A DNA stretch of 64,000 nt from Candidatus Omnitrophota bacterium (lineage in GTDB: Bacteria; Omnitrophota; Gorgyraeia; Zapsychrales; Zapsychraceae). Every line of letters starts with the position of its first letter. Position 1 is the stretch's first letter. Position numbers and translations under genes: made by a program. The notes under the pieces were generated by a model. It worked only from the letters and a program-made list of their open reading frames with translations. It had not been told where the DNA came from and did not search any database. This document shows, in pieces, positions 1,574 through 64,000 of the stretch. The DNA lies in NCBI GenBank assembly GCA_020429915.1, contig JAGQKV010000003.1, forward strand, positions 2,442 to 66,441. The letters run 5' to 3'.

Positions 1574-2764
1574 ATGTCCCGAAGGACCAGCCCTTTCTCC
1601 CGGCGGACCGACTGGCCGCGTCAGACCAACCGTATCACCTGCGTCCATGAAGAGCTTAAAGAACAAAACATCGAGATCATTGATCTGACGGTGTCCAATC
1701 CGACGCGCTGCGGCCTCGCCGCTCCGCCGGAGTTCTTGGACGCGTTGCGCGACCCGGCGGGGTTGGAATACACGGCGGACGCGCACGGGCTGCTCTGCGC
1801 CCGGGAAGCCGTGGCCGGACTGTTCGCGCGGCGCGGGCTGACGGTCGATCCCCGTGATCTGTTCCTGACGGCATCGACATCCGAGGCTTACGGTTTTGTG
1901 TTCCGCCTGCTGGCCGATCCCGGCGACACGATTTTATTTCCGACGCCGAGCTATCCGCTCTTTCATTTTTTGGGTGAGATCAACGACGTGGAGCTCGGGT
2001 TTTATCCGCTGACCTACCGGGACGGCTGGCGCATCGATATGGAGGGGCTGGTGGAGGCCCTGCATCCCCGGGTCAAGGCTCTGGTCACCGTCAATCCCAA
2101 CAATCCCACCGGATCCTATCTGAGTGAGGAAGAGCGACGGCATCTGAACAAGATTGCGGCCGAGCGGGGCATGGCATTGATCAGCGACGAAGTCTTCTAT
2201 GAGTTCCCCTTGGGAGACGCGCCGGGGGCGAGCCTGGCAGGCAACGCGCCGGCCCTGACGTTTACGCTGGGCGGTCTGTCCAAGTATCTGGGACTGCCCC
2301 AGATGAAGCTGGCGTGGATTCTGGTCAACGGCCCCGAGCACCTGGCGGCGGAGGCTCGCCAGCGGCTGGAGATCATCGCCGATACCTATCTGTCGGTCAA
2401 TACACCGGTTCAGTGTGCGCTGCCCGCGTGGCTCAGTCAGGCGGACACCGTGCAGGCGCCGATTCTCCGGCGGGTGCGGAACAACTGGGAGCATCTTAAC
2501 CGGGAGGCTGCCGGATTGCGGGGCACGCAGGTGCTGCGCGCCGAAGGCGGCTGGTATGCCGTTCTTAGGGTCGCGCCGGTCCGCAACGAAGAGGAGTGGG
2601 TCTTGAAGCTGTTGTCTAAATATCACGTCTTTGTGCATCCCGGATTTTTCTACGACTTTGAGGACGGCCCCTGCCTGGTGGTCAGTCTGCTGGTCCCGCC
2701 GGACGATTTTCGCGAGGGAATCGGCCGCGTACTGAGCCGTGTCGAACAGCAAAGCGGGTCCTGA
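1574..2764 (+). CDS. Class I/II PLP-dependent aminotransferase (AlaT/AspC-like)
   Basis: Motifs NPNNPTG and SKYLGLPQMKLAW (Lys of the PLP site). Length of 396 aa is typical for the family. Confidence 0.8.
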   Translation: MSRRTSPFSRRTDWPRQTNRITCVHEELKEQNIEIIDLTVSNPTRCGLAAPPEFLDALRDPAGLEYTADAHGLLCAREAVAGLFARRGLTVDPRDLFLTASTSEAYGFVFRLLADPGDTILFPTPSYPLFHFLGEINDVELGFYPLTYRDGWRIDMEGLVEALHPRVKALVTVNPNNPTGSYLSEEERRHLNKIAAERGMALISDEVFYEFPLGDAPGASLAGNAPALTFTLGGLSKYLGLPQMKLAWILVNGPEHLAAEARQRLEIIADTYLSVNTPVQCALPAWLSQADTVQAPILRRVRNNWEHLNREAAGLRGTQVLRAEGGWYAVLRVAPVRNEEEWVLKLLSKYHVFVHPGFFYDFEDGPCLVVSLLVPPDDFREGIGRVLSRVEQQSGS

Positions 2765-3254: not shown

Positions 3255-3276
3255 CCGCGGCACCGGTGGATATGCC

Positions 3277-4077
3277 ATGAGAATCATCGCTACCGTCATT
3301 ATCTGTGTCATCGGCTTAGTAATTTTTGTCCATATCCTGGAAACAAAATCCGTCTTTGTCCCGGCGAAGGAAATCCTGCGTACTCCCAAGGAGCTCGGGA
3401 TCCCGTTTGAGGACGTGTGGCTGCAGGTGACGGTTCCGGCGGACTTCAAGATCCACGGCTGGTGGATCAGCCGGGAGGACCGGCGCAAGACGATCCTGTT
3501 TTTACATGGCAACGCGGGCAACATCAGCGACCGCTTGGACAAGATCAATATGTTCAACCGTATGGGGCTGAACGTCCTGATCATCGACTATCAGGGTTAC
3601 GGCCGCAGCGAGGGTATTCCGACCGAAGGCGGGATGTACGCCGACGCGCAGGCTGCGTACTTTTTTCTGACGCGGGATAAAGGCATCGCCCCGGACGATA
3701 TTTTCCTGTACGGCGCTTCACTCGGCGGGGCCGCGGCCGTGGACGTGGCCGCCAAGAATCCCGTCGGCGGATTGATCCTGGATTCGACCTTTACCAGCGC
3801 CAGGGATATGGCCCGTCATATTTTTCCGTTTGTGCCGACATTCCTGGTGAAGGTTAAACTGGATTCGCATTTGAAGATCAAGGCAGTGGCGGCGCCCAAG
3901 CTGTTTTTTCACAGCAAGGCGGACGCCACCGTCCCGTACCGGTTCGGACGCAAGCTGTACGATGCGGCTGCCGGGAGAAAGAAGTTTGTAGATATCGAGG
4001 GCGGCCATAATGACGGGCACGTTCACTCTGAAGACATCTTCGTAAAGGAGATTCATGATTTCATCACCGGACAATAA
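3277..4077 (+). CDS. Alpha/beta hydrolase with N-terminal TM anchor
   Basis: HGNAGN oxyanion-region motif and a GASLGG nucleophile elbow (GxSxG), with a hydrophobic N-terminus IIATVIICVIGLVIFV. Confidence 0.75.
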   Translation: MRIIATVIICVIGLVIFVHILETKSVFVPAKEILRTPKELGIPFEDVWLQVTVPADFKIHGWWISREDRRKTILFLHGNAGNISDRLDKINMFNRMGLNVLIIDYQGYGRSEGIPTEGGMYADAQAAYFFLTRDKGIAPDDIFLYGASLGGAAAVDVAAKNPVGGLILDSTFTSARDMARHIFPFVPTFLVKVKLDSHLKIKAVAAPKLFFHSKADATVPYRFGRKLYDAAAGRKKFVDIEGGHNDGHVHSEDIFVKEIHDFITGQ

Positions 4078-18750: not shown

Positions 18751-18787
18751 AGACCCAGCCGCAAGTACCGAATTTAAAAAGATCTAT

Positions 18788-18859
18788 TGCCCGGTGGTGT
18801 AATTGGCAACACAGCAGAATTTGGATCTGCTTTTCCAGGTTCGAGTCCTGGCTGGGCAG
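18788..18859 (+). tRNA. tRNA-Gln (anticodon TTG)
   Basis: Manual cloverleaf: acceptor TGCCCGG/CTGGGCA (one G-T), D stem GTGT/ACAC, anticodon stem GCAGA/TCTGC with loop ATTTGGA, T arm CCAGG-TTCGAGT-CCTGG, discriminator G. CCA is not encoded. Confidence 0.8.
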
Positions 18860-18919
18860 TACTTTTGTAGCGACGACCAGACGCAGCAGTTGAACTGACA
18901 GGATTTCTTTGAGACGAAC

Positions 18920-53332: not shown

Positions 53333-54531
53333 ACCGACGTAACTATAAAAATCCCATGCCGCAGCACGCGACCTGGTGCGAGATCGATCTGGCCGCCATC
53401 CGTCACAACCTGCGCCAGGTCAAGGAGCTGGCCTCGCGCAACGAATTCTTTCTTCCCGGCCGTAGCGGATCGGGACAGAAGATCAAAACCAGCATGATGG
53501 GCGTGCTGTGTGTGATCAAGGCCGACGCCTACGGCCACGGCATGCTCGAGGTGTGCGGGGTCCTTGACGACGAGGGGGTGGAGATGTTCGGCGTGTCCGA
53601 CATCAATGAAGGCATTGCTCTGCGCGACCGCGGCATCACGACACCGGTGCTGCTGTTTGAAAGCACGCTTCCCGAACACATTCCGTTTATCTGCGAATAC
53701 GATTTGACGCCGACATTGTGCACGCTGGAATTTGCCCGCCGTTTGGACGAGCTGGCGCACAAACTGAACAAGACCGTGCGCGTCCATATCGAGGTCGACA
53801 CCGGCATGGGCCGGCTCGGCGAGTGGCATACCGGCGCGCTGGATTTTATCCGCCAGGTCGCGTCTTTGCGCAATCTGGTGATCGAGGGGATTTTCACCCA
53901 TTTCCCGTCCGCCGACACCGACAAGAAATTCACCCGCCAGCAGATCGACCTGATCCACGGCATCATCCTCGAACTCGACCGGGAAGGGCTGATCATCCCG
54001 TATGTCCACGCCTGCAACAGCATGGGCCTGATGGGCTATCACACCAGCGTGATGAATCTGTTCCGGCCGGGGTTAATGGTGTACGGCCAGTACCCGGCCA
54101 AACGTGTGCGCGATGTCATCGCGCTGAAGCCGGTGCTCACGGTCAAAAGCAAGGTCATCTATGTCAAAGAGATTGCCAAGGGTCGCAGCATCTCCTACGG
54201 CCGGACATTCGTCGCCAAGCGCCGGATGACCGTGGCCACCATCCCGATCGGCTACAATGACGGATACCTGCGCGAGTACTCCAACAAGGCGCACGTACTC
54301 ATTAACGGTCGCCGCTGCCGGGTGCTGGGCATGGTCACTATGGACCAGATCGTCGTCGATGTGACCGGTATCGGCGGTGTGAGCGAAGGGACGATCGCCA
54401 CCGTGCTGGGCCGCGACGGCGACGATGAAATCACGGCCGACGAACTTGCCCGGCACGCCAAGACGATCAACTACGAAATCCTGTGCCACCTCGGCAACTG
54501 CATCCCGCGGGTGTACTTGGAGGCATCCTAA
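53329..54531 (+). CDS. alr: Alanine racemase
   Basis: PLP-lysine motif VIKADAYGHG, and C-terminal beta domain with the YGR..V..M pattern. Confidence 0.9.
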   Translation: MNRRNYKNPMPQHATWCEIDLAAIRHNLRQVKELASRNEFFLPGRSGSGQKIKTSMMGVLCVIKADAYGHGMLEVCGVLDDEGVEMFGVSDINEGIALRDRGITTPVLLFESTLPEHIPFICEYDLTPTLCTLEFARRLDELAHKLNKTVRVHIEVDTGMGRLGEWHTGALDFIRQVASLRNLVIEGIFTHFPSADTDKKFTRQQIDLIHGIILELDREGLIIPYVHACNSMGLMGYHTSVMNLFRPGLMVYGQYPAKRVRDVIALKPVLTVKSKVIYVKEIAKGRSISYGRTFVAKRRMTVATIPIGYNDGYLREYSNKAHVLINGRRCRVLGMVTMDQIVVDVTGIGGVSEGTIATVLGRDGDDEITADELARHAKTINYEILCHLGNCIPRVYLEAS

Positions 54532-55466
54532 TGCGAATCCAATTCCGCCACGTTTTGTTGCTTACCCTCATTGTAAACTTTTTATGTTCAACTGTTGCCG
54601 CAGCGGTTGAACGAGTGGCTGGAACACATGTAAGCTTGAATCCGCCGCCGAACTTTGAAAAAGCGGATAAGTTTCCCGGTTTCATGCGTGAAGAGTACGG
54701 CGCGTCGATTATGGTGATGGAGCTCCCGGGTCCGTTCGATGAATATAGAGCCGGCATTGAAGACAAGGATCACTTGAGTACGCGAGGGATGCGTCTTTTG
54801 CAGAAAGAGGCTGTCCGGGTGGATAACCGAGACGGCTTACTGGTGCATCTTTCTCAGGTGCTTCATTCGTTGGAATTCCGAAAATGGGTATTGCTCATCG
54901 GTGAGCGAGATCGAAACGTTATGGTCATGGCAAATTATCCTGCAGAACTTGAAGAAGAATTTTCGATGATTTTGCGTGAGAGTGTGCTCAGTACACTTTG
55001 GGATCCGGACCAACAAGTGAGCAAGGAAGAGGGATTAAATTTCACCTTAACCGAATCCGGATCGATGCGTCTTGCGGAGCGGATGGGGAATATGCTGATG
55101 TACTCAAAGGATGCACAGGTTCAGCCTAGATCGGTGGATGATCCCATTTTGATCGCTGGTTCTGCCTTGACAGATTGGCCTATTGGTGACAGAAAAGAGT
55201 TTTCCCGAAAGCGTCTGCAATTGACCGCTACCGTCACGGCGATTGAGATCGAGACTTTGGATGAGGTACGTGTGGACGGTTTAGAGGCGGTCGAAATTCT
55301 GGCGAAAGCGAAGGATACTGATTCCGGGAAAGAAATTCGTCTTTACCAAATGATGGTTTTTAAGGGGCAGACCTACTACCTGATTCAGGGTATGGTGAGC
55401 TTACGCCGGGAGGACGAATTTATGGCGGACTTTCAGGCAATGGCGCGATCGTTTAAGTGCAAATAA
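54531..55466 (+). CDS. Secreted hypothetical protein in a lower-GC segment
   Basis: Signal peptide MRIQFRHVLLLTLIVNFLCSTVAAA and no recognisable motifs. Local GC is about 45% versus about 62% genome-like background. Confidence 0.55.
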   Translation: MRIQFRHVLLLTLIVNFLCSTVAAAVERVAGTHVSLNPPPNFEKADKFPGFMREEYGASIMVMELPGPFDEYRAGIEDKDHLSTRGMRLLQKEAVRVDNRDGLLVHLSQVLHSLEFRKWVLLIGERDRNVMVMANYPAELEEEFSMILRESVLSTLWDPDQQVSKEEGLNFTLTESGSMRLAERMGNMLMYSKDAQVQPRSVDDPILIAGSALTDWPIGDRKEFSRKRLQLTATVTAIEIETLDEVRVDGLEAVEILAKAKDTDSGKEIRLYQMMVFKGQTYYLIQGMVSLRREDEFMADFQAMARSFKCK

Positions 55467-55688: not shown

Positions 55689-55959
55689 CATTGAGGACAT
55701 CATTTACGGAGCGCAGCGACGTAAATGGACGTCCGAAATGAACCCGACGTAGCTCAAACGCGGAGGCACACGCAGTATGCCGGAGCATTTGAGCGTAGGC
55801 GGGTCATATCATTCATCTGGTATCACGGCTTCAGCCGTGATGCTCCCGAAGATTCGGTGGTGAATCCGCGGATCGAAGGGAGCGATACGTTCTTTTGGCT
55901 GTCCCCGGCCACTTTCCCCGTTAAGATTAACCGTCCAAGACCGTTACCTTGGATATATG

Positions 55960-56014: not shown

Positions 56015-59000
56015 ATGACGTCATCGCCAACGCACCCGAAATTCCGCTTTAGCCTGCCGTTTCGGCTGATCGCCCAAGTGTTGATTGTGTGCCTCGTCGG
56101 TACGGGCATCCCCGCGCCGCGGGAGGCGCACGGCCGCACGGCGCCGGAGATCCCGCGTCTGGGCGAACTGGTCCCGGCCAGCCCGGACTATGCCCCGCCG
56201 ACCTTGGCCGGACTGAAGATCTATCCGGACAATCCGTTCCGTTTCGATTTTCTCATCGATCCGGGGGATTCCCGTTTGACACAGGAGGCGCAGCGCGATG
56301 AATTCACCCGTCTTATCAAATACTTTCTGGCGGCGCTGACCATCCCCGAGGGCGATCTGTGGGTGAATCTCTCGCCGTTCGAGAAAGACCGCATCATGAC
56401 CGACGCCTTTGGCCGTACCCAGATGGGGCGCGATATGTTGGTTCAGGATTACATGCTCAAGCAGATGTCCGCCTCGGTGATCTATCCGGAGAGCGAGGTC
56501 GGGGAAAACTACTGGCGCGAGGTGTTCGCGCGCTTCAATCAGGAATTCGGTTCCTCCGAGGTGCCCGTGGAGATGGTCAACAAGGTTTGGGTCGTACCGC
56601 GGGATGCCGAGCTGTACGTTGAGGACGGCCGCGTGCTGATCACCGAAAGCCGCCTGGAGGTGATGCTCGGCGAGGATTATCAGGCGCGCCTGCGCGAAGA
56701 CGCCGTCACGGGTGAGTCTGTGGAGGCGGAGGTCTCCGGGGAGACCGCGGCCCGTCAGGAATTGTGGCGCCAGCTCTTCCGCGAACACATACTGCCCGAA
56801 GTCGCGCGGGACGTCAACCACGGCCGGAATTTTAACGAACTGCGCCAGATCTACCACGCGGTCATTCTGGCGACGTGGTATCGCCGGCATCTGCGCCAAT
56901 CGCTTTTCGGGCAGATGTATGTCGGCCGCGAAAAGACCGACGGTGTGGACATCGCGGACCGGACGGCCAAAGAGAAGATCTATGAGCAGTACCTGAAAGC
57001 GATCAAGCGCGGGGTCTACGATTACATCAAAGAAGATTTCGATCCCGTCACGCAGGGCATCATCGCACGCCGGTATTTCTCCGGCGGCATCATGTTTTCC
57101 AATCTCGACCGGCGCGAGGGCGTGTACCGCGAGACCCGCGATCCCGGCGTGTTGAGCAAATTGAAGATCACCGCGCGGCAGCATCTCGAGCGCTTGTACT
57201 ATCTGGTATCGTCGGTGGTGATCTCCAAGGAGGGCGTGGCCAGCTACCAGAAGTTGGAGCTGGCCGCCCGTCCGCGGACCGCCGCGCGGATACGTTCCGC
57301 GATTCCGGTCGAACGTCTCAGCCGGCTCTTCCGGCGGACATTCGCCGCGGCACGCTCCAAGGTGCGCGGGGTCGGCCTGCTGGCCGGTGCGGCGTTCCTC
57401 GCGACCACGCTCGGCATGGGCCAGCCTGTTCAGGCGGCCGAGTATACCTATGACGACCAGGGACGTTTCGTGGTCGTGGTGGAGCAGGGCGATGACTTCG
57501 GCGAGATCGTGGAAGATTTGCGCGTCGCGCACAAGCGCTATGACAACGCGCGGTACACGCCGCCGTTGCGCGGACAATTTTGGGGCCCGGACGGCGCGGT
57601 CTATGCTATGGCGCGGTTGATGGAACGCGACAATTTAGGCCTGCATCCGGGCGACGTGCTGGTCATCCCCGGGGATGTGATCTCCGAGGCCACGCAGACC
57701 GCTTTGGCCGGGCCGGTACCGTATACACCGCCGATGCTCACCGGACCGCTGGTCGTCGAAGAGCCGGAGCTCGACCTGACGCCGCTGGAACCGGTCAAGC
57801 CCGCCCCGCAACTGCAGGAGTTCACGCCGCCGGACTTCGTCGATACCCCGGCGATCGTCACCGACACCGATACCGACGAAGGCGCTGCCGACCGCATTGT
57901 CGAGGCCGGTAAAGGCGAACGTCTGGACGCGGGCGACAATCGTGAGGAAACACAGATCACCGCGGTCCCTGAGACGTCCCCGGGACTGTTCAACCGCTGG
58001 ACCCTGCTCGGCGTCCTGGGATTGATCGGCGCCGGCGTGATCGGTGTCCTCTTGTACCGCAGCCGCGGCGGACGCGTGTTGTCCGCAGAGGAGGAACAGG
58101 ACGAGCCCGCGGACCTGCCGCAGGAAGACCCCGGACGGCTGGCGCAGCGCCGGATTATTCAGGAGGCCCTGCGCATCCGGTTGCAAAAGTTGAGCCTGAA
58201 CTATTCCGGGCATACCGCCAAACTGCGTCAGGCGGCGGTTGACGTGACACGGCCGCTGGCCGATTATCTCGCGGACCGCTTGAACTCCGTGCTGCCCGAC
58301 GGGCGCGGGGACATCACCGGACTGGTGCAGGAATACGTGACCGCGCCGCTGCGTGACGGAATTGCCGGCGCGATCGACACGGCAGGCGACTTTGAGTCCA
58401 TCGAACGAAATCTCGACGCGTGGACCGACGGACTGGCCGGGACCATTCTGGAGCAAGATCTGCCGGTGGCAGAGGTCGAGCGCCGTATCAACGCCTATAT
58501 ACAGGAAGAACTGGACCCGCTTTTCGCCGCTGCTGAGTCCGCGGCGGTGTCCCGGGTCTCCGCCGAATTGTTCAGCGCCGAATGGATGAACGTTTATCAG
58601 GCGCGCATCGAGAGTCTGCTGCGCCGTCGCCTGGCGGATCAAGACGGGCTCAACGACCTGCCCGGTTTCCTCAGCGAAACCGCGACTGCGTTGACGCAGC
58701 TGTTCCGTGAAGAAGGATTGATCACCGGCGCCGACAGTCTCACTTTAAGTGCAGGGTTGTCGGCCGCGCAGGTGGCGGCCGTCATCCGCCGCCACAGTCC
58801 GGAATACCGCGGCATGTTGAACCGGGCCTATGCGCACAGCGAGGCGATCCGCGAAGACATCATTACCGCGCTCTTGGACGGGAATATCCTTCCCGAGGGT
58901 ATCAGCAAGGAAGAGGCACGGGCCTACTTGCGTGACGCCGCCGGGGCTGAACTCGACCGTATTGTGGAAAGTGAATTCGACCGCCGGGCCGGGTACCTGC

Positions 59001-62000
59001 AGGTGGAGGCGCGCGTCGATGCCTTTGCCGCGGCCGTGGCCGAAACCTTGGCCGGGGAGGAGCCGGACCTGTCCGCGCAGCAGCGGCTGTTGCGCGGCTT
59101 TATCGATTTTGAACTGCGCGATACCGTGACTGCCGCGGTGGCGGCGGCTGAGGAGGCATTGCGCGCGCAGTTGTTCGGCGCCGACATGCCGCTCGTGTAC
59201 CGGGCCGCCATGGAGAAGGCGGTGCGCACCGAAGTGGCCGTGGCCAACGGGGCGCCCGTCAATCCGGCGTTGATGTTCGCGCAGGCCGTGGAAAATGTAC
59301 TCACCGCGCTGAAGGACGACATGAAACTGATCGGCCAGGCGATCATCCCGCCGCCCGAAGAATTGCTCGCGGCGGTCGGTGCCCTGTTCCCTGAACCCGT
59401 GACCGCCGGCGTCCCGGATGACCGGCGCCTGCGCGCGCCGCCGTTCGAAATCACCCGCGCCGACATCGCGGCCGCCGCGGCCGCTGTTACCATTTATCTC
59501 GGCGGAGACGGTTCCGCCGCCGAAGGTCTGTTGCTGGCCGCCAGTCCGCTGTTATTCCGCGCCGGCGTGACCGCGTCGTACTGGCTGCATGAACTCACGC
59601 ACGTCGCCGCGGCCGGCCCCTCCGCCGTAACGTCCGCGAACCTGCGCGCCAATGTCCCGTTCGGCGACTGGCTGCGGATGCTCGTCCCGGTCTTCGGGAC
59701 GGTGCCCGGCGACCTGCACGTTAAGGCGCCCAATACATGGTGGAATCATCTTTCGGCTGTGGGCACCAGCCTGGCGCTGACACTCGGTTTGGCCATGACC
59801 GGTTTGTCGGCGGCAGGCGCCCACGCCATCGAACAATTGCAGCTCATTACACCGCTCTTGCTCGGTTCGGCGTTCGTGCTGGCCGGTGCGATACAGACGG
59901 ACGTGATCGATCCGCTGCTCAAGCGTATCAAGCAAGGCGCGAACTGCTGCGGCGTGGCGATCCTGCTCGGCAAACGCAAAGAGAAGGACGAACCGGTCAT
60001 CGCCCGGCGTCTGCTCGGCGTGTACAAGCGGATGGGAGAGATTACCAACATCCGCGGACAGCAGGCGGCCGGCGCGGTCATCTCGGCCCGCAACGCCAAG
60101 GGCATGAGCACATTCGTCGGCGACCGCCGCGTCAACCCCAAGCACGGCGATCTTCCCGAAGGGCTGGAGGGACAAATCCGTCGGCATGTCCGTGCCGCGC
60201 GGGTGAAGGGTTTCGGGGATACCGGGACCACCATGATGTTCGGTCACTACCGGTACGGGACTACCTCGGCCCCGGCCAAGAAGGAAACCCATCCGCACCG
60301 TTTCGTCGAACCGCGCGACGTTCGCTACTGGGAAGTCAGCGATGGACGACTGGAGGCACAGACGCGCGAACTCGAGATTTACATCGTGCACAACGGGGAC
60401 TTTAATTACTGGACCATGTACGGGACCAAGCACGGTAATTCGCACATCGGCTTTTGGCTCGAACACGTGCTGGGTGTGGTCGACGAGACCCAGGGTGACT
60501 CGCCCAAGATCTCCGGGATGATGAACTTGCTGCGCACGCAGGGCATCTTCGGAGCGTCGGCGCGACTGGCGTATTACACGCAGATCGCCACCCGCATCGA
60601 AGACGTGTTCGGCGGACAGCATCCCGCCGACATCCTGCCGGATTTTTCCAAGAGCCTGGTCCAGCCGTCGGAAGATTACATTTTCAAGAAGACCATGGAG
60701 GCGAAACGCAACGCGCCCAATACCGCGCTCACTCAGGACGAGATCGCGGAGTTGGGTAAAGTGTTCGACGACCTGTTCACAGAGTCGGGTGAATCGTTGC
60801 TGACCTCCGGAGCGGCCCGGCTTGCCGACATGTGGGTCAGCCGCGAACAGGCCGCCCGCGGCGACGAAGTCCTCACCGCGCAGCGGGCCCGCATCGACGC
60901 CTTCGCGGCGCGCGCGGCCGAACGGCTGGCCGGAGTGCCGCTGACCGCGGCGTGGAGCATCGAACAGCGCGACCGTTTTATCGAGGCGACGCTCGAGGCG
61001 TTCTTCATGAACGATGAATTCACCGCCGTGCGCAGATTTTTGGAAGGCGCGCAGGGGTCGTTCGGCATGGGCCTGGCGACCTCGCTCAATCCCGGCGGGG
61101 TGGTGGTGGCCGCCGACGGACAGCCGCTGGCCGTGGGGATGGACACCGCCCGCGAGAATATCCTGATCGCGTCGGAATTCTCTGCGCTCAAAGTACCCGT
61201 CGATGAAGACGGCACCCGCCTCGATTACCGCTTCGCTCTGAAACAAGAGCCCGGCAAGGGCGAGATCGTGGCCATCGCACCGGACGGGCGGCTGCAGGTC
61301 TATTCGCGCGAACGCCGCTCCATGATCAACGAGGGAGAAATCACCCGCCGGCTGGTCCCGCTCAAGAATAATCCTTACATCACGGAACTGGCTGTGCTGG
61401 ACCAGGAGGATCCCGTCGGCAAAGATATCGCCGAGACGGCCGCGGTCCTGGGGCATATCCGCGACGAATGGACCGATCCGGATTCGATGAATCGCCAGAG
61501 CCTCGCGGGCCTGCAGGAACAGATCATCCGCAAACACATCCTGCGCCGCATCAAAAAGACGTCGGCCGCTTACGCCGGCATTCACAATGCGCTCAGCCGC
61601 AAGGCGCGCGCCGCAGTGCGCGACAGATTAAACGGTTATCTGCGCGCCGAACTCGGCGAACGCATCCCTCTCGACGAAGAACTCTGGAAGAAGCTCGGCA
61701 TGGACCGTTTCACCGGTGAGGTGCAGCACCTGGTAGAGATTGCTCTGGACCAGGCCTTTGCCTGGCACGAGATCAATGAACACATCGGGGCCAAGGCCGC
61801 TGTTTTCGCGCGCCGCCACTCCGTCGGCGTACTCAGCCTGGACCAGCTTCAGGACGAGATCCATCTCTATGTCGACCACCTGCTCAAGGACACGATCGAA
61901 GCGGAACTGCAGCGTGCGCAAAGTATGGTCGATGAGATCATCGCCCATTGGCAGCCGGTGATCGCCGCGGAGATCGTCTTTGAATGGACACGCGCCAAGG

Positions 62001-64000
62001 CCCAGCAGCGCACCGGGGACCTTTCCCCGATCGGCCGTCAGGCGATCGCTCAGTGGAAGGGGATTTGGCGGAAACTCAACATCCGCCTGACCATGCCGCC
62101 GGAGACGCCGAAGACCGATGTGCTGGTGACCGGACTGGAAACGAGCCTGTGGATGGGCGAACAGTTCGCGCAGGACCTGCAACGGATGTTTCCGGAGATG
62201 GTCGTGCGCAGTGAGTCGGCCAACAAGCTGCTCGAGGATCCGCTGTCTACCGGACTCGATGAGGATACCATTGTGATCGCGGTCAGCCAGTCGGGACAGA
62301 CCTTTCCGTCGCTCAACGCGACCATCCTGCTTGACAAGATCACCCGCCACAAAGTCTTTGTGGTCACCGGTGAATACGACACGCTGATGGGGCAGGCCGT
62401 CGGCCAGGATTTCCAGCCCGACGCGCGTTTCAGCGGCCGCATCTTTTCCAACTTTACCGGCTTCCGCCACGCGGAGGCCTCCTCGGTGACGGCCACGGCC
62501 ACGCATGCCACCTTCACCGAAATGTTGATTTATCTTGCTGAGGGACTCCACGACCGGTTTCCCTACGATTCCCCATACGGACTCGCGATTGAAGAAGGCG
62601 ACGTGGCCGACGTGAAGGCCGCCCGTGACCGCGCGCTGGAAGAGACCGCGCGCATCACCGGCAAGGACGCCGACGGAAAGACGCTGGAAAGTCCGGAACG
62701 CAGCCAGATCCTCCAACAGGCGCGCAACTGGGCGCGCAACGTCCTGGACGCGCCGCTGGCGGTGATCCTCTCGAAGATCAACCTGTACGTGACGGTGGTC
62801 AGCGGGTTCTTCGTCTTTCTGTCGATCGCCAAGAGCCTGCCGCTGGTCGGCGGGCTGGCCGGGACGGTCTTTATCGCCAGCTTCCTGCAGGCGATGTACT
62901 ACGATTACTTCTCGGCAGGCATGAATTACCTGTTGCGCAAGATCACCGGCCGCGAGATGCTCGACCGCATCGGCAAGCGCACCGTAGTCATCGGCGACAA
63001 GGCCTATGTCCATCAGTCGCTGGAGGCGTTTTTATCGAAACTCAACTCGCTCAGCCGCGGTATCGTGGGTGTCGAGGTGCACGGCGCCAATCCGGGTGAT
63101 CACATGATCTCGCGTTTCGGGCACCGCGTGGTGCGCGGGACCATGATCTGGATCGGCGTCCCTGACGGACGCATGCCGGGACTGCGCCAGAAACAGGCGA
63201 GTGTCGAGATGACCGCCAAACAGGGCAAGGGCGTGCGCAACCGCATTTTTGGCCGCGGCATCGGTCCCAACGTGGTGACCGTCGGACGCCGGCGCGTGCA
63301 CAATCCCAACGTGGCCGACAGCACCATCATTCTGAACGGGGAGGTGAAGACGGACAAGCCGGCCCTGGAGACGTTTGTCGAGAACCGCTTCGATTCGATG
63401 ACCCGGCTGGTCGCCGGGCAGGTGTTCTTTCACGCGATGCAGCGGCGCGTGGCCACCGCCGGCCTGAGCAAACCGTGGCGCTGGCTGTGGTACTGGCGCT
63501 GGAATATTCACCGCACGCAGAGCGGACCGCGTATCGCCACTACGCAGAGTCCGGTCGATGCCGAGATCCTGGAACAACTCGAGGACCGTCCCATTTATCC
63601 CGCGGCGGGCGTGCGCGAGGTCATCCGCCGGCCCGACGGCGGACATCGTTACGACAGAGATACGAACCCGGTCGACGGGGGAGACGCGGCCCTGTTGGCA
63701 GAGCCGGCAACCGTGACCGGGGGCGACGAAGTCGGGGGTATCGACTTGCGCGGCGGGACCGTCGAACTCAATATCACCGAAGGTCTCCCGACGGTACCGG
63801 CCGACACCCTCCCGGCCGGATTTACCATCGATCCTCTGATTATCGAAACGCTCCCGGTCAACGGTTTCACGCCGCTGATCATCGACGTCAGGCCTATCAA
63901 CGCGATTTACTTCCTCGGAGAAGGGGACAGTGATCGCGATCAGCCCCGGCCCCGGTCCCGCTTAGGCGGACCGGTGGCCGGATACATGGCGGAGGAAGCC
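56015..64000 (+). CDS. Giant multi-domain, membrane-associated protein. At least 2,662 aa are in the window and the 3' end runs off the window. It contains a GlmS-like glutamine amidotransferase class II + SIS module and is not present in the supplied ORF track.
   Basis: Manual triplet-by-triplet reading from ATG 56015 (SD AGGAG 9 nt upstream; in-frame TGA upstream at 55838-55840). No TAA/TAG/TGA occurs in 2,662 consecutive codons to nt 64000, whereas about 65 stops would be expected by chance at this GC. GC-rich third positions are consistent with the other genes. N-terminal signal/TM (FRLIAQVLIVCLVGTGIPAP) and a TM at about 57990-58060 (WTLLGVLGLIGAGVIGVLLY). Ntn-GATase motifs CCGVAILLG, GFGDTGTTMMFGHYRYGT...HPH and IYIVHNGDFNY. 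SIS motif VIAVSQSGQT. Confidence 0.8.
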   Translation, partial: MTSSPTHPKFRFSLPFRLIAQVLIVCLVGTGIPAPREAHGRTAPEIPRLGELVPASPDYAPPTLAGLKIYPDNPFRFDFLIDPGDSRLTQEAQRDEFTRLIKYFLAALTIPEGDLWVNLSPFEKDRIMTDAFGRTQMGRDMLVQDYMLKQMSASVIYPESEVGENYWREVFARFNQEFGSSEVPVEMVNKVWVVPRDAELYVEDGRVLITESRLEVMLGEDYQARLREDAVTGESVEAEVSGETAARQELWRQLFREHILPEVARDVNHGRNFNELRQIYHAVILATWYRRHLRQSLFGQMYVGREKTDGVDIADRTAKEKIYEQYLKAIKRGVYDYIKEDFDPVTQGIIARRYFSGGIMFSNLDRREGVYRETRDPGVLSKLKITARQHLERLYYLVSSVVISKEGVASYQKLELAARPRTAARIRSAIPVERLSRLFRRTFAAARSKVRGVGLLAGAAFLATTLGMGQPVQAAEYTYDDQGRFVVVVEQGDDFGEIVEDLRVAHKRYDNARYTPPLRGQFWGPDGAVYAMARLMERDNLGLHPGDVLVIPGDVISEATQTALAGPVPYTPPMLTGPLVVEEPELDLTPLEPVKPAPQLQEFTPPDFVDTPAIVTDTDTDEGAADRIVEAGKGERLDAGDNREETQITAVPETSPGLFNRWTLLGVLGLIGAGVIGVLLYRSRGGRVLSAEEEQDEPADLPQEDPGRLAQRRIIQEALRIRLQKLSLNYSGHTAKLRQAAVDVTRPLADYLADRLNSVLPDGRGDITGLVQEYVTAPLRDGIAGAIDTAGDFESIERNLDAWTDGLAGTILEQDLPVAEVERRINAYIQEELDPLFAAAESAAVSRVSAELFSAEWMNVYQARIESLLRRRLADQDGLNDLPGFLSETATALTQLFREEGLITGADSLTLSAGLSAAQVAAVIRRHSPEYRGMLNRAYAHSEAIREDIITALLDGNILPEGISKEEARAYLRDAAGAELDRIVESEFDRRAGYLQVEARVDAFAAAVAETLAGEEPDLSAQQRLLRGFIDFELRDTVTAAVAAAEEALRAQLFGADMPLVYRAAMEKAVRTEVAVANGAPVNPALMFAQAVENVLTALKDDMKLIGQAIIPPPEELLAAVGALFPEPVTAGVPDDRRLRAPPFEITRADIAAAAAAVTIYLGGDGSAAEGLLLAASPLLFRAGVTASYWLHELTHVAAAGPSAVTSANLRANVPFGDWLRMLVPVFGTVPGDLHVKAPNTWWNHLSAVGTSLALTLGLAMTGLSAAGAHAIEQLQLITPLLLGSAFVLAGAIQTDVIDPLLKRIKQGANCCGVAILLGKRKEKDEPVIARRLLGVYKRMGEITNIRGQQAAGAVISARNAKGMSTFVGDRRVNPKHGDLPEGLEGQIRRHVRAARVKGFGDTGTTMMFGHYRYGTTSAPAKKETHPHRFVEPRDVRYWEVSDGRLEAQTRELEIYIVHNGDFNYWTMYGTKHGNSHIGFWLEHVLGVVDETQGDSPKISGMMNLLRTQGIFGASARLAYYTQIATRIEDVFGGQHPADILPDFSKSLVQPSEDYIFKKTMEAKRNAPNTALTQDEIAELGKVFDDLFTESGESLLTSGAARLADMWVSREQAARGDEVLTAQRARIDAFAARAAERLAGVPLTAAWSIEQRDRFIEATLEAFFMNDEFTAVRRFLEGAQGSFGMGLATSLNPGGVVVAADGQPLAVGMDTARENILIASEFSALKVPVDEDGTRLDYRFALKQEPGKGEIVAIAPDGRLQVYSRERRSMINEGEITRRLVPLKNNPYITELAVLDQEDPVGKDIAETAAVLGHIRDEWTDPDSMNRQSLAGLQEQIIRKHILRRIKKTSAAYAGIHNALSRKARAAVRDRLNGYLRAELGERIPLDEELWKKLGMDRFTGEVQHLVEIALDQAFAWHEINEHIGAKAAVFARRHSVGVLSLDQLQDEIHLYVDHLLKDTIEAELQRAQSMVDEIIAHWQPVIAAEIVFEWTRAKAQQRTGDLSPIGRQAIAQWKGIWRKLNIRLTMPPETPKTDVLVTGLETSLWMGEQFAQDLQRMFPEMVVRSESANKLLEDPLSTGLDEDTIVIAVSQSGQTFPSLNATILLDKITRHKVFVVTGEYDTLMGQAVGQDFQPDARFSGRIFSNFTGFRHAEASSVTATATHATFTEMLIYLAEGLHDRFPYDSPYGLAIEEGDVADVKAARDRALEETARITGKDADGKTLESPERSQILQQARNWARNVLDAPLAVILSKINLYVTVVSGFFVFLSIAKSLPLVGGLAGTVFIASFLQAMYYDYFSAGMNYLLRKITGREMLDRIGKRTVVIGDKAYVHQSLEAFLSKLNSLSRGIVGVEVHGANPGDHMISRFGHRVVRGTMIWIGVPDGRMPGLRQKQASVEMTAKQGKGVRNRIFGRGIGPNVVTVGRRRVHNPNVADSTIILNGEVKTDKPALETFVENRFDSMTRLVAGQVFFHAMQRRVATAGLSKPWRWLWYWRWNIHRTQSGPRIATTQSPVDAEILEQLEDRPIYPAAGVREVIRRPDGGHRYDRDTNPVDGGDAALLAEPATVTGGDEVGGIDLRGGTVELNITEGLPTVPADTLPAGFTIDPLIIETLPVNGFTPLIIDVRPINAIYFLGEGDSDRDQPRPRSRLGGPVAGYMAEEA

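Follow-up and report, generated by a model that had tools for sequence, protein, structure and literature searches.

GlmS and GFAT are among the best-studied amidotransferases and are regarded as soluble enzymes with the nucleophile right after the initiator Met. Ntn chemistry needs a free alpha-amino group on this nucleophilic Cys. Cyanobacteria have a canonical glmS, and known site-2 proteases (S2Ps) carry regulatory domains (e.g., PDZ and CBS). GPRAT propeptides are removed autocatalytically, which exposes the Cys; the propeptides described are short, and Cys87 is named for Arabidopsis GPRAT2 (PMC7056826).

We analyzed a stretch of 64,000 nucleotides of Omnitrophota DNA (referred to here as the window). 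A giant ORF (Table 1) is open at the window end, leaving at least 2661 aa visible. Its closest relative, P0001 (2669 aa), is 85% identical to the window protein, and by this comparison the full length of the giant ORF is likely about 2669 aa. A preliminary description of this DNA had called the protein exported; it is a multi-pass membrane protein instead. Residues 1312 to 2514, in the C-terminal half of this ~2,670-residue Omnitrophota membrane protein, are a complete but divergent copy of GlmS, composed of a class II Ntn glutaminase, a linker helix, two SIS domains (SIS1 and SIS2), and a tail. The module had been thought to end at nt 62520, which is too early, as the hairpin, SIS2, and tail reach approximately nt 63556. 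Regarding the rest of the protein, the N-terminal 625-aa domain had no Pfam match and no PDB sequence match, and a search for internal repeats in aa 684 to 1150 found none. Neither conserved partner genes nor functional hints were detected in the gene neighborhoods of the window protein, P0001/P0152 (Omnitrophota), P0016 (a cyanobacterial cluster including Stanieria), and P0028 (Cyanobium-like), and no PADLOC defence model matched.

Table 1 Features of the giant ORF and its GlmS/GFAT-like module (nucleotide positions in the window; residues counted from M1)
Feature	Nucleotides	Strand	Residues	Remarks
Giant ORF	56015..64000	+		M1 = nt 56015 (ATG); in-frame upstream stop at 55958
Site-2-protease (peptidase M50)-like membrane domain	59507..59914	+	~1165-1300	
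Linker before Cys, putative propeptide end	59903..59947	+	1297-1311	VIDPLLKRIKQGANC
Motif NCCGVAI	59942-59962	+	1310-1316	
Cys1312, predicted N-terminal nucleophile	59948..59950	+	1312	GlmS Cys1 equivalent; invariant in both family alignments; invariant Gly next
Class II (Ntn) glutaminase domain	59948..61384	+	1312 to ~1790	
Motif IRGQQAAG			1346-1353	
Motif GHYRYGTT			1410-1417	
Motif ETHPH			1424-1428	
Motif VHNGDF			1458-1463	
Family-specific helical insertion inside glutaminase domain	60590..60958	+	~1526-1648	Alignment and model secondary structure
Motif GSFGMG			from 1681	
Motif LIASEFSAL			1717-1725	
Linker helices	61409..61564	+	1799-1850	DPVGKDIAETAAVL...NRQS
Lineage-specific helical insert	61565..62104	+	1851-2030	Missing from compact family members
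First SIS domain (SIS1)	62105..62614	+	2031 to ~2200	Pfam SIS (sub-threshold), hhalign, fold
Motif LVTGLETSLW			from 2037	
Motif VIAVSQSGQTFPSL			2087-2100	
Hydrophobic helical hairpin between SIS domains	62750..62911	+	2246-2299	Hydropathy scans; two long model helices
Second SIS domain (SIS2)	62960..63454	+	2316 to ~2480	Structure model, Foldseek, invariant columns
C-terminal tail motif R-I-A-T-T-Q-S-P-V	63530..63556	+	2506-2514	Family consensus; no Lys

The homology to GlmS-type glutaminase and SIS domains that the preliminary description had proposed for nt 59940 to 62520 was borne out: the quoted motifs were all present, and both profile and fold evidence supported the assignment. All eight GlmS active-site residues that we checked, with the numbering verified on the E. 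coli sequence, had invariant counterparts in 29 aligned relatives that were 22 to 39% identical to the window protein (i.e., Cys1, Arg26 [R1347], Arg73 [R1413], Thr76 [T1416], His86 [H1426], Asn98/Gly99 [N1460/G1461], and Asp123 [D1495]). The equivalents of Cys1, Arg26, Asn98, Gly99, and Asp123, which had been singled out earlier for this comparison, were thereby all accounted for. The invariant positions of this alignment were C1312-G, R1347, H1411, R1413, T1416, H1426, H1459-N-G-D1462, and D1495-S. The structure model of the glutaminase domain (pLDDT 92.2; pTM 0.90) has the four-layer alpha-beta-beta-alpha Ntn fold and matched 2j6h_A in Foldseek (E 8e-10). Searched against the PDB, the family profile matched only GFAT/GlmS chains (E 7e-6), and on GFAT1 it aligned in three colinear stretches, with the family CGNFG placed on GFAT1 residues 1 to 6 (M-C-G-I-F). 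The NCBIfam GlmS models matched the window protein locally (E 1.3e-8), and over the window protein together with the 8/8 relatives tested, the E values were 2e-13 to 2e-3.

A single-sequence PDB search found nothing, and hhalign of the family against E. coli GlmS alone was weak (probability, 27% and 4%). In the suggested Pfam HMM check, GATase_2/4/6/7 did not match the window protein, the domains of the 29 relatives, or eight whole relatives, and Pfam SIS (PF01380) scored 17.5 to 20.3 bits (E 5e-4), under its gathering score of 25. Given that the profile and fold evidence was strong, we did not take the silence of the GATase models as a refutation. The insert of ~160 residues that had been noted after the HNG motif is real, as Asn1460 and Gly1681 are 221 residues apart versus 61 for Asn98 to Gly159 in GlmS; the helical insertion of this domain is shorter in compact relatives.

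Motif comparison suggests that the linker helices are the counterpart of KEIxEQP, the helix with which the GlmS isomerase domain begins. In SIS1, strand 1 is followed by G-L-E-T-S (E-T-S at aa 2042 to 2044), and the phosphate loop reads S2091-Q-S-G-Q-T2096; counterparts of both Thr302-Ser303 and the phosphate loop of GlmS (Ser347-Gln-Ser-Gly-Glu-Thr352) are thus kept. An hhalign comparison of SIS1 with a 10-sequence GlmS profile gave a probability of 69% (E 4e-5), while the hhalign run of the SIS2 profile against the same 10-sequence profile was not significant. The SIS structure model (pLDDT 89) matched GFAT1/GlmS isomerase domains in Foldseek (E ~1e-9; target-normalised TM-score [TMt], 0.60 to 0.67; ~450 columns), in agreement with the five-stranded parallel sheet of the SIS fold. 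Both the glutaminase and SIS models matched GlmS/GFAT best, with glutaminase, tandem SIS, and tail in colinear order. The family-invariant residues of SIS2 were K2342, H2356, D2362-H2363, H2370-R2371, R2374-G2375, D2384-G-R2386, and Q2403. An alternative SIS2 register suggested by that run (GRPDGR = GRGDQY and Gln2403 = Glu488) was rejected because it would reduce SIS2 to three strands, whereas the model shows five, arranged as in GlmS. A hydrophobic hairpin was found between the SIS domains in 11/11 family members checked by hydropathy and is a predicted membrane anchor.

Two acceptor-site residues of GlmS appear to be missing. Motif similarity suggests that the tail (family consensus, R-x-A-T-T-x-S-P-V) is the positional counterpart of GlmS P-R-N-L-A-K603-S-V-T, and the helix FVSKLFALSY (LSKLNSLS in the window protein) has no acidic residue where GlmS has LKLKE488ISY. 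With the mapping drawn from secondary-structure order and motif matching, Glu488 appears to be replaced by Ala/Ser and Lys603 by Thr. Such replacements would mean that the acceptor chemistry is not the conversion of fructose-6-P to GlcN-6-P, and the earlier label of a sugar-phosphate amidotransferase is not established.

The module is not a one-protein oddity: a large family shares it as a conserved core. With clustering at 50% identity, an exhaustive HMMER search yielded 1,065 clusters with E 1e-3 or better, at least 279 of them reaching E 1e-30; members come from cyanobacteria, haptophyte and dinoflagellate algae, Planctomycetales, and Omnitrophota. Nostoc, Chroococcidiopsis, and Leptolyngbya are among the species-level relatives. 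A word-indexed search gave 0 and 1 matches; given the 1,065 matches of the exhaustive search, a conclusion of "no homologues" from it would be a false negative. The smallest members are ~1,000 aa long; the cyanobacterial P0016, one of the compact relatives, has 1,251 aa. The preliminary description had called the architecture undescribed, and we found no description of it in the literature or in curated models. Named members are all annotated as "hypothetical protein," and nothing in Pfam scored above threshold anywhere along the members tested, so identifying the fold offers a ready means of annotating them.

The aligned nucleophile is C1312, the second Cys of a CC pair, and not C1311; with the Gly after it, it sits where the first beta strand begins. 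No start codon is adjacent to it, and, as stated in the preliminary description, it is internal and lies behind a membrane segment. A consensus before the Cys, also proposed there for checking, does exist in the family: G(-4)-x-[FYL](-2)-[CYF](-1). The Cys is at residue 2 (i.e., a Met/Val-Cys start) in ~10 of 104 representatives (~10%) and internal in ~90%. Three Met-Cys starts were verified by in-frame stops 12 to 29 codons upstream. The gene upstream of P0028, which has a Met-Cys start, is unrelated, and no gene abuts the start of P0035 upstream; Met-Cys-start members without any protease domain also exist. Cleavage maturation and a dead binding domain had been named as the alternatives, and they were the right pair. 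The sequence evidence favours maturation because all eight glutaminase-site residues are invariant and because ~10/104 representatives, three of them verified, begin with Met/Val-Cys.

On balance, we lean toward an active, membrane-bound glutamine amidotransferase that would be matured by cleavage before Cys1312 and would act on a phosphorylated acceptor, and that would not be a GlcN6P synthase. Residues 1312 to 2514 would then be, somewhat more probably than otherwise, the catalytic core of a widespread family of membrane-anchored GlmS/GFAT paralogues. The chain would be cut between C1311 and C1312, giving Cys1312 its free alpha-amino group. Most probably, the chain would cut itself by an N-to-S acyl shift, in the manner described for the propeptides of glutamine PRPP amidotransferases. 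The hairpin would hold the released C-terminal fragment in the membrane, with the glutaminase and both SIS domains on the cytoplasmic face, a topology predicted from hydropathy only. Glutamine would be hydrolyzed and the ammonia handed to an acceptor at the SIS phosphate loop, probably a phosphorylated and possibly a membrane-associated compound. At -1 the family has an aromatic residue or Cys, which runs counter to autocatalysis, as many self-processing Ntn hydrolases have a small residue. The propeptides described are short, none being near 1,311 residues, which runs counter to maturation.

The same enzyme could instead have its Cys unmasked by the adjacent membrane cluster, which, as judged from its sequence, is an S2P (M50)-like domain; acting as an intramembrane zinc metalloprotease, it would cut its own chain ~16 residues past the third zinc ligand, Asp1296, and so free the amidotransferase with Cys1312 in first position. 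We consider this unlikely. The domain directly adjoins the Cys in most family members, and the conserved motif before the Cys could serve as a recognition site. The window protein has an HExxH motif in a transmembrane helix (H1192-E-L-T-H1196, nt 59588 to 59602) and a distal Asp ligand, the family-invariant Asp1296 (nt 59900 to 59902). HExxH is intact in 55/104 representatives; its second His, like the Asp, does not vary across the family. A profile of 28 upstream segments matched the Aquifex RseP-like structure 9j82_A (E 2.3e-4) and E. coli RseP (7w6y; E 0.11), and Pfam Peptidase_M50 matched 7/28 members (best E 3.4e-5) but not the window protein itself. However, the catalytic Glu is Gly in a cyanobacterial clade (H-G-x-G-H, seven representatives; also in Synechococcus BA-132), and the first His is Asn in six other representatives. 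These degenerate groups keep the internal Cys and all of the glutaminase residues; thus, self-cutting by the S2P-like domain cannot be the general mechanism. No S2P-type protease is known to us to cut its own chain. A fuller version, in which the S2P-type domain would cut its own chain to unmask the Cys and the enzyme would aminate a phosphorylated acceptor in or at the membrane (e.g., a lipid-linked sugar phosphate), is decidedly improbable, more so than either this proposal or the sensor discussed below. Such a self-maturing enzyme, if true, would mean an undescribed pathway common to cyanobacteria, plastid-bearing algae, Planctomycetes, and Omnitrophota.

More doubtful than cutting by the S2P-like domain is the possibility that the module stays uncleaved, is not an enzyme, and binds glutamine or a sugar phosphate as a sensor or regulatory domain whose target could be, for example, the S2P-like protease to which it is fused or the extracytoplasmic domain at the N terminus. 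The internal position of the Cys in ~90% of representatives and the apparent absence of Glu488 and Lys603 counterparts are consistent with a sensor, and the PDZ and CBS domains of known S2Ps offer a parallel. Nevertheless, the Cys and the glutamine-binding and oxyanion set are invariant at 22 to 39% identity, a nucleophile and an Asn-Gly pair would be superfluous in a pure binding domain, and there are Met-Cys-start members that have no protease domain. Least probable of all, and very much so, is an ordinary GlmS fused by chance to a membrane protein. In both structure and profile searches, GlmS/GFAT came out as the top match to each half, and the phosphate loop SQSGQT is retained, but the window protein scored 29 to 34 bits against cutoffs of 418 and 381 (TIGR01135 and NF001484), and its relatives scored 17 to 49 bits. 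An ordinary GlmS would also not be expected to carry the ~160-residue helical insert, a membrane hairpin in the isomerase domain, or its own set of invariant Arg and His residues in SIS2, nor to lack Glu488 and Lys603 counterparts, as this module appears to; moreover, family members are found in cyanobacteria, where a canonical glmS is already present.

The window reveals a large sister family of GlmS that is built differently, with a membrane hairpin, apparently altered acceptor-site residues, and a nucleophile that is usually behind an S2P-like domain. If these proteins are active, oxygenic phototrophs and PVC-type bacteria would carry out an unassigned amination at the membrane that draws on glutamine, and the system would be a tractable case for the release of an Ntn nucleophile from a very long precursor.

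Regarding known systems, the double-SIS enzymes AgaS, FrlB-like, and GlmD-like (PDB 3c3j, 3g68, and 2aml) matched the tandem SIS domains nearly as well as GlmS/GFAT did (Foldseek E 4e-9 to 1e-8), but they have neither a glutaminase domain nor a membrane hairpin. Like the site-2 proteases RseP, SpoIVFB, and MjS2P, the upstream domain places HExxH within a hydrophobic helix, and an invariant Asp follows in a helix further along; a family (R/K)xAGxxxS segment resembles their AGPxxN segment, and the profile matched RseP-type structures over TM1, hairpin, and TM2. In contrast, this match is weak (E 2e-4), the window protein has no Pfam match, the LDG motif is S/T-D in the family, the Glu or the first His has been lost in several clades, and there is no PDZ or CBS domain. 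We found no description in the literature of an S2P fused to an amidotransferase. For PurF with a propeptide and the glutamate synthase large subunit, the propeptides described (PMC7056826) are short, compared with 1,311 residues containing folded domains here. The acceptor domains of these enzymes (PRTase in PurF; FMN/Fe-S in glutamate synthase) are unrelated to that of the module, and the enzymes have no membrane segments. The closest likeness is to GlmS/GFAT, with which the module shares the order of Ntn glutaminase, linker helix, two SIS domains, and C-terminal tail, as well as the 8/8 glutaminase-site residues, the loop S-Q-S-G-x-T, the Thr-Ser after strand 1, a Lys485 equivalent, and a His in the His504 loop. 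The differences are a low identity (11 to 21%), scores far under the NCBIfam cutoffs, and silent Pfam GATase models; the apparent changes of Glu488 to Ala/Ser and Lys603 to Thr on the mapping described above; and features of the family's own, namely, the glutaminase helical insert, the SIS1-SIS2 hairpin, the invariant Arg/His cluster of SIS2, and a nucleophile that in most members lies within the chain, preceded by a membrane domain.

The giant ORF is a single plus-strand frame (ATG at 56015, from which residues are numbered; preceding in-frame stop at 55958) that encodes at least 2661 aa and is open at the window end. Because its closest relative (P0001; 85% identity), a Candidatus Omnitrophota MAG protein annotated as "hypothetical protein," is 2669 aa long, only the final few codons lie outside the window. 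Upstream are housekeeping genes (radA, ispD, ispF, cysE, tmk, holB, metG, mtnA, thiL, tsaE, tsaB, and alr), named from translations and from Pfam matches at the syntenic locus of a relative. At the position equivalent to the window's 327-aa ORF, a related Omnitrophota contig (L049) carries a 311-aa gene. On the contig of another Omnitrophota relative (L050, 14357-16724), genes for an MscS-type channel and a rhomboid protease lie downstream of the giant-gene orthologue; the window stops short of the equivalent region. No conserved gene neighborhood was found among the loci compared. The large N-terminal domain is presumably extracytoplasmic, given its placement between a signal-anchor-like helix and a second transmembrane (TM) helix, and is kept in some of the relatives (P0002-P0005, P0045, P0047, P0064, P0081, P0112, P0144, and P0148).

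Features of the giant protein and its surroundings (nucleotide positions refer to the window)
Feature	Residues	Nucleotides	Observations
tRNA-Gln (anticodon TTG)		18787-18860	Sole RNA gene detected in window
327-aa ORF		54483-55466	Directly upstream of giant gene; weak PsbP-like (PF18933) match, E 0.005
Signal-anchor-like helix	10-36
N-terminal large domain	37-657	56123-57985	Pfam and PDB sequence searches without match
Second TM helix	658-683
Segment between second TM helix and site-2-protease (S2P)-like domain	684-1150	58064-59464	Ala/Leu/Glu/Arg-rich, apparently helical; no internal repeats, no family match
H-E-x-x-H	H1192-E-L-T-H1196		In hydrophobic helix; conserved before Cys
L-x-P-F			Conserved before Cys
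(R/K)-x-A-G-x-x-x-S			Conserved before Cys
Invariant Asp	D1296		~16 residues before Cys
CCGV motif	C1311-C1312	59945-59950
Glutaminase domain	1312 to ~1790		Family-specific helical insertion at ~1526-1648 (alignment, model)
Linker helices	1799-1850		D-I-x-x-I-P-x-x-L, likened by us to GlmS K-E-I-x-E-Q-P
Lineage-specific insert	1851-2030		Missing in compact relatives
SIS1	2031 to ~2200		G-L-E-T-S and S-Q-S-G-Q-T
Hydrophobic hairpin	2246-2299		Two long hydrophobic helices; in 11/11 relatives checked
SIS2	2316 to ~2480		Model and fold match
Tail	2506-2514		R-I-A-T-T-Q-S-P-V
C-terminal extension	2515-2661	63557-64000	Follows GlmS-like tail; kept only in closest relatives (P0001, P0003-P0005)

All GlmS-like motifs quoted in the preliminary description were in frame in the giant ORF. 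Regarding the curated models, the proposed Pfam GATase check yielded zero matches, the Pfam SIS scores (17.5 to 20.3 bits) were under the gathering score of 25, and the NCBIfam GlmS models produced only a local match (aa 1666-1725 to model positions 141-198; E 1.3e-8; 34 bits versus a cut-off of 381). Such models are almost blind to this region. BLAST against E. coli GlmS gave three weak, colinear matches. In the PDB, a profile from 29 relatives matched no chains other than those of GFAT1 and GlmS (E 7e-6 to 1.6e-4). The whole-family profile aligned "CGNFG" to GFAT1 residues 1-6 (M-C-G-I-F-A), and two more stretches aligned colinearly, one within the C-terminal half of the glutaminase domain and one at the SIS phosphate loop. 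For an AlphaFold model of aa 1312-1850 (44-sequence alignment; pLDDT 92.2; pTM 0.90), PurF (23.1), EgtC, AsnB, and GltS scored below GlmS/GFAT, and Foldseek was concordant. The model of aa 2025-2530 (pLDDT 89) resembled the isomerase domains, likewise double-SIS, of GFAT1, E. coli GlmS, and Candida Gfa1 (E ~1e-9; target-normalised TM-score [TMt], 0.60 to 0.67; ~450 columns). These profile matches and models support the GlmS-type glutaminase and SIS homology first proposed, as well as the insertion in the GATase fold; the module is, however, larger than described, the whole GlmS-like unit reaching ~nt 63556. We conclude that it is a real, well-supported remote paralogue of GlmS.

The smallest family members (~1,000 aa) consist of exactly the GlmS-like unit minus the lineage-specific insert. 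Some relatives, such as P0104 (4617 aa) and P0074 (5926 aa), are far larger than the giant protein; P0104 carries the SIS-hairpin-SIS module twice in tandem (residues 2715-3197 and 3264-3735). Searching 1.84 billion cluster representatives exhaustively with HMMER detected 1,065 relatives at E ≤ 1e-3 (279 at E ≤ 1e-30). Word-indexed searches returned 0 and 1 matches versus these >1,000 representatives; the Ala-rich query apparently saturates their limit of 8,000 candidates, and a "no homologues" reading based on them alone would have been wrong. Named members belong to Omnitrophota and Cyanobacteriota, every one a "hypothetical protein." Among species-level genomes, 42 loci were found, predominantly cyanobacterial (including Nostoc, Chroococcidiopsis, Pleurocapsa, Microcystis elabens, and Leptolyngbya), plus Planctomycetales and Omnitrophota; eukaryotic algal members occur in the haptophyte Diacronema lutheri and the dinoflagellates Polykrikos and Pelagodinium. 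No Pfam model exceeded its threshold anywhere in eight whole relatives, and PADLOC models gave no match. A literature search yielded no paper describing the architecture, in agreement with the initial assertion. The architecture is new: a buried Ntn Cys behind an S2P-like domain, then an insert-bearing glutaminase, SIS1, a predicted membrane hairpin, a modified SIS2, and a modified tail.

A Cys buried this deep had been taken to imply either maturation or a dead, binding-only domain. In an alignment of 29 sequences (22 to 39% identity to the window protein), C1312, G1313, R1347-G, Q1350, G1353, K1376, H1411, R1413, T1416, H1426, H1459-N-G-D1462, and D1495-S were invariant. These include the equivalents of Cys1, Arg26, Arg73, Thr76, His86, Asn98, Gly99, and Asp123 (numbering checked on the E. 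coli sequence), i.e., the GlmS nucleophile, glutamine-binding residues, and oxyanion hole. Moreover, Cys was at residue 2 in 10 of the 104 representatives with a locatable Cys motif. Four such starts were checked at the DNA level: three, all lacking a membrane domain ahead of the Cys, had an in-frame stop 12 to 29 codons upstream (P0028, Cyanobium-type, with an unrelated upstream gene; P0035, cyanobacterial, with no upstream gene abutting the start; and P0102, on a cDNA-like contig), and the fourth sequence reaches its contig edge. The contig carrying P0102 (L062) begins with Illumina adapter-like sequence (positions 1-67; AGACGTGTGCTCTTCCGATCT) and so probably represents a cDNA or transcript assembly, with a eukaryotic alga as the likely source. 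Since the Met-Cys starts of these three proteins are verified by upstream stops, the family includes classical Met-Cys Ntn enzymes. These members and the invariant catalytic set argue for a working glutaminase, in which case members with an N-terminal extension would have to be cleaved before the Cys.

In the window, no start codon adjoins Cys1312 (the closest in-frame GTG is V1297), and a search for a conserved motif before CCGV, as had been proposed, revealed the family motif G(-4)-x-[FYL](-2)-[CYF](-1). Cys1312 would most likely be unmasked by proteolysis. The "TM cluster" previously noted before the Cys does contain a membrane segment but is more than that: the ~150 preceding residues, conserved across most relatives, form a protease-like domain. 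A profile of 28 such segments matched the Aquifex RseP-type S2P (9j82_A; E 2.3e-4) and, at E 0.11, E. coli RseP, spanning TM1, the hairpin, and TM2; 7 of the 28 segments matched Pfam Peptidase_M50 (best E, 3.4e-5). Together with the HExxH and D1296, these matches suggest that the S2P-like domain may cut its own chain in cis before the Cys in lineages with an intact HExxH, including the window protein. However, the cyanobacterial clade, with Gly for the catalytic Glu (H-G-x-G-H), and another clade with Asn for the first His both keep the internal Cys, which places autoproteolysis by the Ntn domain ahead of cleavage by the protease domain in our ranking. In glutamine PRPP amidotransferases, the propeptide is removed autocatalytically, exposing the Cys (PMC7056826).

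Once unmasked, the enzyme would most likely catalyze glutamine-dependent amination of a phosphorylated acceptor at the membrane. SIS2 carries a new invariant Arg/His set (H2356, H2370-R2371, R2374, and D2384-G-R2386), and its profile alignment to GlmS was non-significant; residues of SIS2 and the tail were mapped tentatively from the five-strand/helix order in the model and motif similarity. Compared with GlmS, the family has Tyr or Phe instead of Trp74, the putative counterpart of the Glu488 helix is V-S-K-L-F-A-L-S-Y, without an acidic residue, and a tail Thr would take the place of Lys603. Shared with the acceptor half of GlmS are the phosphate loop, the Thr-Ser that follows strand 1 and, probably, counterparts of Lys485 (K2342) and of the loop His at 504 (D2362-H2363); the last two are invariant in the family.
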